Shown: in pieces, positions 43,701-47,567 of the stretch
Numbering within the stretch: position 1 is the first letter of the stretch
How the letters are laid out: every line of letters starts with the position of its first letter
Notes under the pieces: generated by a model
The model's input: the letters and a program-made list of their open reading frames with translations, nothing else
What the model was told of the DNA's origin: nothing
The model's database searches: none
Assembly (NCBI GenBank): GCA_030141605.1
Contig: JAQGDQ010000935.1
Span: 1 to 57,439, forward strand
Source of the DNA: Tubiluchus corallicola
Lineage: Eukaryota > Animalia > Priapulida
Direction of reading: 5' to 3'
Length of the DNA stretch: 57,439 nucleotides
Translations under genes and position numbers: made by a program

Positions 43701-46700
43701 CAGAACATGTCCTTTCTTGTGGATTCCGTCTTAGAACCAGGAAAGTGATTAAACTGCAACAAAACAGCAGACTGTCTTAAATATACGTATCATCAAAACA
43801 CTAAATCAACCAGGGCTCGATGTTTAATACACTTTTATAATAAAACCACTAAAGTAAGTTAAAATGTAGCAATATATTATAATATAACTTTAAAAGTTTT
43901 ACTTGAAGTCAATAGTAAAATTGCTTGTTTACATTCATCCAAGTGATATAGTGTGTTACTTGTGGAACATTTTTATAGTTTTGCAACAAAATTTATCACA
44001 CAGAATTCGTTTTATTTATTTCGAGTATTGCTTATCTTTGTATAGTCAAAGCTGTTGTTGCTGTACTAGTTGTTGTTGTTGTTGTTGTTGTTGTTGTTGT
44101 TGTTGTTGTTGTTGTTGTTGTTGTTGTTGTTGTTGCTGCTGCTGTTGTTGTTGTTGCTGCTACTGTTGTTGCTGCTGTTGCTGTAGTAGTAGTAGTAGTA
44201 GTAGTAGTAGTAGTAGTAGTAGTAGTAGTAGTAGAAGTAGTAGTAGTAGTAGTAGTAGTAGTAGTAGTAGTAGTAGTGGTAGTAGTAGTAGTAGTAGTAG
44301 TAGTAGTAGTAGTAGTAGTAGTAGTAGTAGTAGTAGTAGTAGTAGTAGTAGTAGTAGTAGTAGTAGTAGTAGTAGTAGTAGTAGTAGTAGAAGTAGTAGT
44401 AGCAGCAGCAGCAGCAGCAGCAGCAGCAGCAGCAGCAGCAGCAGCAGCAGTAGTAGCAGTAGCAGTAGCAGTAGTAGTAGTAGTAGTTGTTGTTGTGGTT
44501 GTTGTTGTTGCTGTTGTTGTTGCTGTTACTGCTGTTGTTGTTGCTGTTGCTGCTGCTGTTGCTGTAGTAGTTTTTGTTGTTGTTGCTGCTGCTGTTGCTG
44601 TTGCTGTAGATGTTGTTGTTGCTGTTGCTGCTGCTGTTATTCTTGTTGCTGCTGTTGCTGCTGTTGTTGTTGCTGCTGCTGTTGCTGTAGTTGCTGTTGT
44701 TGCTGCTGCTGCTGTTGCTGTTGTTGTCGCAGTAGTAGTTGTTGTTGCTGTTGTCGTTGCTGCTGTTGCTGTAGTTGTTGTTGTTGTTGTTGTTGTTGTT
44801 GTTGCTATTTCTGCTGCTGTTGTTGTTGCTGCTGTACCTGTTGCTATAGTAGTAGTTGTTGTTGTTCCTGTTGCAGCTGTTGTTGCTGTAGTTGTTGCAG
44901 CTGCTGCTGCTGTTGCCATAGTAGTTGTTGTTGTTGTTGCTGCTACTGTTGTTGCTACTGGTGCTGTTGCTGTTGCTGCTGCTGTTGTTGTTGTAGTAGT
45001 AGTAGTTGTTGTTGTTGTTGCTACTGCTGCTGCCGTTTTTTCTTTTTCTTATCGTTCTACCGGTTGTGCTAGTCTTCTCTAGACATTTTCAGAATAAGAG
45101 TCGTGGGTGAATCTAATGGTATAAATTTTGAATTATCATTACGTCCCAAAGGATTTCTGCACCATTTGATTTTGGTTAAATATGAAATTACCTTTTGATA
45201 ATACTGTAGTTTGTGATACTGGTATGGTTCTATAAGCAAGCACCAGCAGCCAATCCAGTCATCATTGTCAAACTGACCTGAAAGCAATGCAAGTTTATGT
45301 CTTTTACCAATTATACTGCACGATGTTTCTTTGAGGGTTCGTGGAGTTGCTTCTCATAAAATCGTGTTCGCTAATAAATTTGCAATTACAAAACTGATTT
45401 CGATAAAGTTAGCATCAACGGAAAGACAGTTCATGATGACCTAGTGTTACAAACAAATAAATGTAATCGAATACTACAGATAGCTCTTGTTCCGATGAAA
45501 TGGATCCCATTGTCTATGGGGTGAGCCGTAATAAAGTCACAGGAAAAAAGTCACGAAAAAAGTCACAATTTGGGCTAAAACTAGGATTAGGGATAGAGGG
45601 TAGAGTTAGGGTTAGGGTTATTTCTTTTTTTTCTTGTGTCTTTTTCCTGCGTCGTCTTTCCTGTGACTTTTCTCTGTGACTTTTTTACCTACAACTTTTT
45701 TTACCTGAGACTTTTTACCTGGCTTCGTTTACGGAACATCATTTCAGGCTGTTGTTAATCAGCTAGGCAACAACCTCTGATCGGATTTGCAATTGTTGGA
45801 GAAAGAGTGACAAAACGTCGTACGATTAATAATCAACATTTAATATGCATGAATAAGTATTTGTTATATGTGATGTGGCGATATATTATAGGTTTTACAC
45901 GTCAAATGTAGACACAGGAAAGTTCAAATGTGACTTAGGTAAGTCAAATGTAGACATAGGAATTTCGAATGTGTTTTGGTAACTCAAATGTGACTTAGGT
46001 AAGTCAAATGTAGATGCATTACTTTGAATAAATAGGTAATTAGCTCATTTAAGTGCAAATTACAAAAAGATAAACCAAAGATAGTCATCACCTCTTTCAT
46101 AACTTTGAAAAATGTGTTGTTTATCCCTTCCCAATGAACAGTGAATCACTAATTAGTTTTTTAAGTAATGCATTAGCACTGCATTAATGAATTAGTTTCT
46201 CTCAAGAAACATTGTTTATTTTAAGAATGTATTGTTTTCTCTAACAGTTCCAATGGTATGTAAGGTTTACAGAATATTAGTGAACTATTAGTAGGCCTAT
46301 AAAGTTATTATTTTCACAGCAATTATTAAATTAAGATTAAAGGAGATTAAATTTAACATCCTTAAACTTTACTACCTATCCACATTTGAAATACCAATGT
46401 CACATTTGACTTAACATGTGTCTACATTTGACTTACCAAAAACGCTTAAGATTTCTTGAAAACCATTGTTAACACATTTGAACTACCTAAGTCTACATTT
46501 GAGTTACCAAGACACATTTGAATTACCTAAATCTATATTTGAGTTAACGCAGGTCTACATTTGACAATGTAAAACCTATATTTAAATGTTAAATTGAAAC
46601 TCAATCATTTTTTCACGCACCAATTAAACGGAAGTTTGTATGTAAAAGAACTTTCCGGACGGTTTTCCTTTTTGGATAAGTTTTCCAAATTTGAAATTTT

Positions 46701-47567
46701 TTCACTCTGCTCGGTAGTTCTTCTATAATCTGTCCAGGTAAGGCAAAGTTGAGTACAGGTGAGATGTTGGGAAACAAGCTAGGTGTGAGTGCTGGAACGC
46801 TCCGCCGGCATTCCTCAGTTTCAAATTCATTCCAGCTTGAAAAAATCGTGTGATTTTGCGTTTTTGAGTCAATCACGTCTGAAAAATGTTGTAAAAATTT
46901 AAATTTACAAAGCCCACTTACTGCCAGAAAAATGTTAGTTAATAAATACAATAGTTATAGAGCTTCATATGCTTAATAAAAGAAAGACATGAATTTCTTA
47001 AATATCCCACGTTATCAGCAATTCACTGCACACTGGCAGTGATTTTCAGACAATCTCAGTTCACTTGAAGATACCAACTGGCGTGCAGAAAAAACAACGT
47101 GATTTTTTATTAAAAAATAATAAAAAATTCTTGCTATTGCGTAATATTTATACAATTGTTATACGTTCTCTACCTAATTGTTATTGTTCCGCCTAATATT
47201 GTTAATCTTACGTTTTAAATGCCTCAACTTTCAGAGCACGTAGAGACGGTCGGTCTTACATCTTAATTCAACTGAGGCTAATAACCTTATTACATTACCC
47301 GGTATTTCTACGATTTTGTAAAAAAATAAGCTAGCAAAAGTCAGTACGTGAGTAAATGTACATGTACAAAAGATACAAATGTACACAGCTCCACACAGTA
47401 CACTCGTGTAGGCTTAATTTAAACATAATAACGTTTAAAAATCTAATTGTACTTAGAAACGTGCTTCACATTTTAAAGATTATTATTACTGTATTATTTG
47501 ACTTACCATTCAGGAATAAAAAAGATACTAAAATTAGCTCCAAACTGCGTGACAAACTCTGGGCCAT
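34800..47567 (-). CDS. TTLL4: TTLL4-like tubulin-tyrosine-ligase family protein (copy 1, complete, 13 exons, 560 aa) with signal-peptide-like N-terminus
   Basis: Exons 47567-47507, 46878-46621 ([13 protein letters not shown]), 45277-45192 (DDWIGCW), 43753-43556 (NHFPGS..RKD..WIYKP), 42286-42207, 40866-40738 ([26 protein letters not shown]), 40598-40467 (MHITN), 39801-39703, 39469-39335 ([19 protein letters not shown]), 37798-37679, 36516-36396, 36131-35921 ([26 protein letters not shown]) and 34852-34800. Total 1683 nt, all GT-AG and in phase. Exon 1 is less certain than the rest. Confidence 0.88.
35225..35540 (+). mobile_element. Highly decayed non-LTR retrotransposon RT fragment
   Basis: Reads [18 protein letters not shown] (compare GVPQGSILGPLLF), with a possible decayed (F/Y)ADD downstream. 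Confidence 0.45.
37965..38522 (+). mobile_element. Second copy of the 22265-22872 element
   Basis: Inverted similarity to 22265-22872; ends in ttttcctttaa. Confidence 0.6.
40212..40280 (-). other. tRNA-derived fragment (SINE head or tRNA pseudogene)
   Basis: Minus strand ctgaaggtccctGGTTCAAATCCagg gives a B-box/T-arm; no clear acceptor stem. Confidence 0.4.
40979..42087. repeat. 51-bp minisatellite, ~22 copies, intronic
   Basis: Unit ACTTACTGCTACGTTTAAACAAGTAATCTTACAAAACGACCCCAACAAGTT, head to tail with no spacers. Confidence 0.97.
42577..42810. repeat. (TATG)n microsatellite
   Basis: Seen directly. Confidence 0.97.
44052..45033. repeat. Compound trinucleotide microsatellite (GTT/GCT/GTA/GCA)
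   Basis: Seen directly; intronic in TTLL copy 1. Confidence 0.97.
45527..45726. mobile_element. MITE with AAAAGTCAC/GTGACTTTT inverted repeats and (TTAGGG)-like core
   Basis: aaagtcacaggaaaaaagtcacg ... gggttagggttagggtta-like centre ... ctgtgacttttt; same family as 2508-2672. Confidence 0.65.
45887..46580. mobile_element. Foldback-type MITE, ~690 bp
   Basis: TIR TATAGGTTTTACA..GTCAAATGTAGAC at both ends, with subterminal arrays of CAAATGT (left) and ACATTTG (right). Confidence 0.85.

Follow-up and report, generated by a model that had tools for sequence, protein, structure and literature searches.

A tandem-duplicated TTLL4-like gene with a predicted signal peptide in the priapulid Tubiluchus corallicola: a candidate secretory-pathway amino-acid ligase

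We analyzed a 57,439-nucleotide stretch of the genome of the priapulid Tubiluchus corallicola (contig JAQGDQ010000935.1, assembly GCA_030141605.1; the window) that carries a TTLL4-like gene and part of a tandem paralog. On the minus strand, between positions 47567 and 34800, the gene was assembled as 13 exons with an open frame of 560 amino acids and GT-AG borders at 12 of 12 introns. Its sequence suggests a real and intact gene, divergent but derived from TTLL4, that probably encodes a signal peptide. We consider it probable, though well short of certain, that this fast-evolving tandem copy of TTLL4 has a cleavable signal peptide and serves as an adenosine triphosphate (ATP)-dependent amino-acid ligase that would work either along the secretory pathway or extracellularly, on a substrate other than tubulin. 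We read directly from the DNA that the frame is open across 13 exons, that the first exon encodes a hydrophobic stretch, that catalytic residues are retained and substrate residues changed, and that a paralog exists; the steps that lead from these features to a function are ones that we infer.

The 560-residue model aligns with TTLL4 of the fly Rhagoletis at 36% identity over 533 columns, and with other TTLL4 proteins at no more than 41% (rotifer), with 39% for echinoderm and vertebrate TTLL4. Taken singly, exons 4, 6 and 9 each passed the Pfam TTL model (PF03133), whose cut-off is 20.1 bits, with scores of 43.7-65.7 bits; exons 2 and 12 fall outside the part of the protein that this model covers. 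The initial annotation of the locus had proposed a 61-nucleotide first exon whose ATG follows an in-frame TAA and which ends in a GTAAGT donor that splices in phase to exon 2, and all of this was recovered. The ATG lies at 47567, behind a TAA at 47582-47580 and in a good context (G at -3 and +4), the phase-1 donor G/GTAAGT is found at 47506, and the frame carries on through exon 2 from an acceptor (TTTTTCAG) at 46879. Coordinates of all exons are given in Table 1.

The peptide encoded by exon 1 and the beginning of exon 2 resembles the n-, h- and c-region pattern of a signal peptide. Arg7 is followed by the most hydrophobic stretch of the whole model, residues 9-19. The cleavage sites of signal peptides commonly have a small or aliphatic residue at each of the positions -3 and -1, and Ile23 (-3) and Ser25 (-1) would fit this rule. 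N-terminal hydropathy of the model reaches 3.11 over 8 residues and 2.64 over 11, as compared with maxima of 2.76 and 2.3 among 121 canonical TTLL4 proteins; just two of the 121, at 2.76 and 2.50, attain 2.5 or more over 8 residues, and all stay below 3.11. Among the 77 canonical proteins with both a Met start and the anchor motif, a subset which does not include the one scoring 2.76, the best 11-residue value is 1.41. Phase-1 introns have been reported in excess near codon 20 of animal signal-peptide genes, according to the accessible part of that study (PMC1626468). The first intron of our model is in phase 1 and lies at codon 21, which favors a signal peptide.

Since hydrophobic peptides arise easily in AT-rich DNA, and the window has only about 35% G+C, we tested whether exon 1 could be a product of chance. 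The search space for a first exon was the 6.3 kb from the stop codon of the tandem paralog to the acceptor of exon 2. Neither the donor matrix nor the hydropathy scale that we used had been trained on the Tubiluchus genome. The donor of exon 1 ranked second of the 358 GT sites in this interval, and the top-ranked site has no in-frame ATG. Among the 25 best donor sites listed, only that of exon 1 follows an ATG and a hydrophobic stretch; the other ATG-bearing candidates encode hydrophilic peptides of 4-10 residues. Over the whole window, a hydrophobic open reading frame in the proper phase precedes one of 38 strong donors, that of exon 1, and two of 139 moderate ones. Markov simulations of the 6.3 kb produced the combination of ATG, hydrophobic stretch and donor in 0, 4, 20 and 58 of 1000 runs at four thresholds, the first of which was set to the observed values and is hence post hoc, the other three being looser. 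Because of these counts and simulations, chance is an unlikely origin of exon 1.

Two further arguments of the initial annotation did not survive comparison with canonical TTLL4. Three N-glycosylation sequons had been offered as a sign of secretion, and they were indeed located at N29, N58 and N454. However, the median among 98 cytosolic TTLL4 cores is 6 sequons (range 2-10), so the number found here lies below the norm for cytosolic proteins. The short N-terminus, likewise presented as unusual, is common: of 77 canonical proteins, 29 have the anchor motif among their first 80 residues and six among their first 60. A single sequon position is more informative. The N58 column carries a sequon in just 2 of 103 canonical TTLL4 proteins, yet the sequon is kept in a paralogous exon described below. 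Cysteine content was also considered as support for secretion and was rejected (4 cysteines as compared with a median of 8, range 3-12, in TTLL4 cores). On balance, a signal-peptide start as first proposed is partly supported and is the best available reading of exon 1, with the chance controls, the comparison with 121 proteins, the phase-1 intron, a rebuilt substrate pocket and the kept sequon behind it, and with sequon count and N-terminal length removed from the argument.

Active-site residues were assigned in TTLL6 numbering, transferred via a profile alignment to the solved chain, with residue roles as given in the accessible part of a TTLL6 preprint (bioRxiv 2020.06.07.139295). All eight nucleotide, metal and phosphate residues are retained (equivalents of K125, K174, R219, R241, T263, N264, D346 and E359), and so are the equivalents of N361 and K377, the latter as Lys404 after a one-residue gap. 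The substrate side is altered at six positions (Arg180 to Gly, Tyr265 to Trp, Ser266 to Gly, Lys283 to Arg, Ile362 to Pro and Ser363 to Asn), each of which departs from 119-121 of the 121 canonical sequences. Thirty of 117 near-invariant TTLL4 columns differ in the model and cluster at substrate sites, whereas canonical proteins differ at a median of 1 such column and at no more than 14; these counts are in-sample, and insects dominate the canonical set, a bias that inflates the apparent invariance and has to be held against our reading.

The same preprint, in its accessible part, describes K283 and K377 as the two invariant donor lysines of TTLL glutamylases, reports that K283 is required for TTLL6 activity, and regards aspartate as too short to reach both lysines. 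In our model the position of K283 is occupied by Arg314 (lysine in 121 of 121 canonical TTLL4) and that of K377 by Lys404. Glycylases and TTL, as far as they are described there, have no lysine at either donor position, whereas both residues here are basic. Where TTLL4 initiases have Arg180 and Ile362 (in 120 and 119 of 121 sequences, respectively), we found Gly206 and Pro390, and glycine also takes the place of the glutamine given there for TTLL6-type elongases. Glycine at the initiase/elongase switch together with arginine in place of a donor lysine makes a pocket that matches no structurally defined TTLL class. Since the defining residues of initiases, elongases, glycylases and TTL are all missing, the predicted protein should not be filed under TTLL4 proper, although it belongs to the TTL/TTLL ATP-grasp family. 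In an unrooted tree of 114 sequences (8 of 122 were removed for low coverage) the model groups with TTLL4 of rotifers, echinoderms and vertebrates, on the longest branch of the tree (1.32, with a median tip length of 0.11). Descent from TTLL4 is likely and not proven, because the tree holds TTLL4 sequences only and no other TTLL subfamily as an outgroup.

Related sequences come from two sources. The tandem paralog lies upstream of the gene, and its last four exons are visible, with an open frame, the same intron positions, 51% identity over 165 columns and the same altered exon 10; its 5' part extends beyond the window, so that its first exons fall outside the comparison. The last exon of the paralog is 14 codons longer and has an additional sequon near the C-terminus. 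The second source is a sequencing run (X1) which we treat as DNA of a second individual of the same or a close species, since its reads pass through introns without splice joints. Contigs of this run span exons 2-3, exon 1 lying outside their cover, and include one allele of exon 2 and one paralogous exon 2 at 82% identity. The paralogous exon retains the N58 sequon, and 7 synonymous and 4 non-synonymous changes were counted among 12 of its 22 differences that were listed; a loose end of its contig, translated by hand, shows a sequon N-T-S right before the aligned part. In the allele, residue 30 is substituted and the N29 sequon is retained. The paralogous contig (window positions 46698-46818) has a depth of 20, compared to 5.8 for the allele, and there may be several near-identical extra copies, contig depth being a poor measure of copy number. 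Reads of another run (X2) matched repeats only.

Beside the low sequon count and the insect-heavy reference set, several observations weigh against a secreted enzyme. Upstream combinations of an ATG and a donor that encode hydrophilic peptides exist at 50461, 50117, 49946 and 47794, and 26 of 772 ATG-started frames of the AT-rich window are equally hydrophobic (3.4%). The hydrophobic core spans no more than 9-11 residues; Glu10 borders it and two aspartates follow. Neither the 3' part of the tandem copy nor the exon 2 of run X1 includes a first exon with which exon 1 could be compared. Of the nine changes that separate the allele from the gene over exons 2-3, 7 are non-synonymous and 2 synonymous, a ratio such as would be expected if selection were absent, though from a small sample (8 of the 9 differences in the exon 2 contig were listed). 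Finally, no ortholog was found by exon 2, profile or metagenome searches. A word search with exon 2 confirmed 0 of 19 candidates. HMMER with exon 2 against 1.84 billion representatives returned six matches, two of them TTLL4-like fragments with E about 1e-3 and four of them repeat proteins that were rejected as spurious. A profile search yielded 1437 proteins, the best 120 of which all look like canonical TTLL4; signal-bearing relatives may sit among the other 1317. Metagenome scans confirmed 0 of 282 and 0 of 597 candidates, while the Atlas gave no usable match for exon 2 and only generic TTL clusters for exon 4. No publication on a signal-bearing TTLL4 was found in the literature searched, a set that leaves subscription journals and supplements outside.

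One possibility is that the gene encodes an ordinary cytosolic, divergent TTLL4 paralog, which would have another true first exon, or a hydrophobic start too weak to function, and would act with altered specificity on a substrate inside the cell. Characterised TTLL4 substrates are all intracellular in the accessible part of a review (PMC9117372), short N-termini are common (the 29 of 77 above), hydrophilic alternative first exons exist and the number of sequons is unremarkable. Yet the hydrophobic exon 1 has the best donor among those that follow an ATG, and the nearest of the strong ones, its combination of features arose by chance in only 0-58 of 1000 simulations, and the N58 sequon, apparently gained, is retained in the paralog of run X1. 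We regard a cytosolic paralog as unlikely, if the most serious of the alternatives.

Relaxed selection after duplication could also account for the pocket changes, the copy, whether secreted or cytosolic, then being in decay or a non-catalytic binder. Its branch is the longest in the tree, it differs from the X1 allele mainly by non-synonymous changes (the 7 and 2 given above), and Lys283, which is needed for activity of TTLL6 according to the accessible part of the preprint, is altered. Against this, the frame is open across 13 exons, all nucleotide, metal and phosphate residues are kept although about 60% of positions have changed, synonymous changes are in excess in the comparison with the X1 paralog, and both tandem copies are open. 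Decay seems improbable to us. It is more improbable still, and very much so, that exon 1 is real and encodes a membrane tether that stays uncleaved, or some other targeting signal, with the catalytic domain left in the cytosol: no stretch of the protein is more hydrophobic than the N-terminal one, and an acidic polar region follows it, but its best 19-residue hydropathy of 1.49 is low for a membrane anchor, retained sequons would make no sense in the cytosol, and acidic residues with few arginines, which are atypical of mitochondrial presequences, argue against mitochondrial import.

With the secreted ligase as the favored reading, the following pathway may be proposed. Exon 1 would be the true first coding exon, and its signal peptide would drive translocation into the endoplasmic reticulum (ER) and be cut near Ser25, with N29 and N58 becoming glycosylated. 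Using luminal ATP and magnesium, the enzyme would phosphorylate an acceptor carboxylate to an acyl-phosphate and then join an amino acid to it, the chemistry common to all TTL and TTLL enzymes. The donor is probably still acidic, either glutamate or possibly aspartate, because Lys377 is kept and, with arginine at Lys283, two basic donor-site residues remain; it is speculation that the longer arginine could reach a shorter side chain, which makes aspartate conceivable. Since the acceptor-side residues of TTLL4 are replaced, the acceptor may be a secreted protein or glycoconjugate, and a tubulin tail is improbable; to name matrix, adhesive or mineralising substrates would be a guess. The enzyme would be soluble and either Golgi-resident or secreted, because its C-terminus has no KDEL/HDEL-type end and there is no second hydrophobic segment.

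Side-chain glutamylation is known on intracellular proteins. If our reading is correct, the enzyme would carry out a luminal or extracellular post-translational modification. We tentatively suggest, with rather less confidence than for the single gene, that a small invertebrate family of TTLL4-derived enzymes writes glutamate or aspartate branches resembling those of the tubulin code on secreted proteins or glycoconjugates, a modification for which no writer has been described. As a TTLL4 copy of full length whose catalytic residues are intact and whose signal peptide is predicted, the gene offers an expressible candidate for an enzyme that ligates amino acids to secreted molecules, and if luminal branch-building is real, such an enzyme could serve as a protein-labelling tool.

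Table 1. Exons of the TTLL4-like gene, visible exons of its tandem paralog and other features (positions within the window).
Feature	Position	Strand	Description
Exon 1	47507..47567	-	61 nt; ATG; residues 1-20; hydrophobic residues 9-19; phase-1 GTAAGT donor; predicted signal-peptide exon
Exon 2	46621..46878	-	258 nt; residues 21-107; predicted cleavage region (Ile23 -3, Ser25 -1); sequons N29, N58; Cys44; TTLL4 N-terminal anchor motif at 54
Exon 3	45192..45277	-	Residues 107-135; TTLL4 H-M-K motif substituted
Exon 4	43556..43753	-	Residues 136-201; TTLL6 K125, K174 equivalents; Pfam TTL E 2.7e-11
Exon 5	42207..42286	-	Residues 202-228; beta5-beta6 loop; Gly206 where initiase has Arg
Exon 6	40738..40866	-	Residues 228-271; R219, R241 equivalents; Pfam TTL E 5.1e-18
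Exon 7	40467..40598	-	Residues 271-315; T263/N264 retained; Y265 to Trp, S266 to Gly, K283 to Arg
Exon 8	39703..39801	-	Residues 315-348; from gene model and TTLL4 alignment
Exon 9	39335..39469	-	Residues 348-393; D346, E359, N361 equivalents retained; 362 to Pro, 363 to Asn; Pfam TTL E 1.7e-11
Exon 10	37679..37798	-	Residues 393-433; K377 equivalent retained, after one-residue deletion common to tandem paralog
Exon 11	36396..36516	-	Residues 433-473; sequon N454
Exon 12	35921..36131	-	Residues 474-544; TTLL4-type C-terminal helices; best and only match Rhagoletis TTLL4, 54%
Exon 13	34800..34852	-	Residues 544-560 and TAG; AATAAA at 34566
Tandem paralog, last four exons	55431-55327, 55037-54944, 54395-54185, 53322-53228	-	Open frame
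Inverted duplication	1-7917 and 10018-17940		7.9 kb; 99.3% identity
Sulfotransferase gene exons	20800-26025	-	Pfam Sulfotransfer_1 in 3 of 4 frames tested
Glycosyltransferase family 43 gene	30591-32300	+	B3GAT-type
Frame in intron 10	37377-37586	-	69 codons
Tandem repeats and microsatellites	40971-42087, 44053-45020, 49070-49603, 51974-52456, 52873-53177, 53540-54095		Periods 51, 3, 26, 240, 31

Other features of the window were recorded as well (Table 1). An inverted duplication that begins at its first base contains the 5' part of an SLC3-type amino-acid transporter heavy-chain gene twice, with the copies facing each other (Pfam matches to SLC3A2_N and Alpha-amylase); either a true palindrome or a fold-back in the assembly could explain it. 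Similar intron repeats near 23250 and 27050 in the region of the sulfotransferase gene hint at a local duplication, and the glycosyltransferase gene stands tail to tail with the TTLL-like gene. These neighbors were rejected as functional support, since adjacency was not taken to mean common function. The frame in intron 10, which includes a Met and a hydrophobic stretch, has no Pfam match and is probably due to chance. Tandem repeats and microsatellites lie in introns and between the two TTLL-like genes.

Compared with TTLL4, a tubulin monoglutamylase and branch initiase, our model is collinear over the whole core, including the N-terminal anchor and the C-terminal helices, and keeps the catalytic residues; it differs by the predicted signal peptide, the lack of the initiase Arg180 and the rebuilt donor and acceptor pocket. 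The secretory-pathway kinases Fam20C and VLK use ATP to modify luminal secreted proteins with a fold that is normally cytosolic, but they have a kinase fold and transfer phosphate rather than ligating amino acids. Glutathione-synthetase-like effectors of nematodes, as described in the accessible part of the report (PMC5919673), followed the same path as proposed here: a cytosolic ATP-grasp ligase was duplicated and gained a signal peptide, its ATP pocket being kept and its substrate pocket changed. They represent another ATP-grasp family with small-molecule substrates and are delivered into host cells by plant parasites, a role of which the model gives no sign. Since a secreted TTL-like ATP-grasp domain was already predicted in 2010 for CPED1 (C7orf58), according to the accessible part of that paper (PMC2824669), a secreted TTL-like ligase is not categorically new; no test of the amino-acid ligation on secreted molecules predicted for CPED1 was found in the literature searched. 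As described there, the domain of CPED1 is only remotely TTL-like and is fused to cadherin-like and PC-esterase domains, whereas the model is a stand-alone, full-length derivative of TTLL4 without such a fusion (533 columns of its 560 residues align to TTLL4, after which it stops). In view of these differences in architecture and relatedness, the two proteins are likely to have entered the secretory pathway independently.

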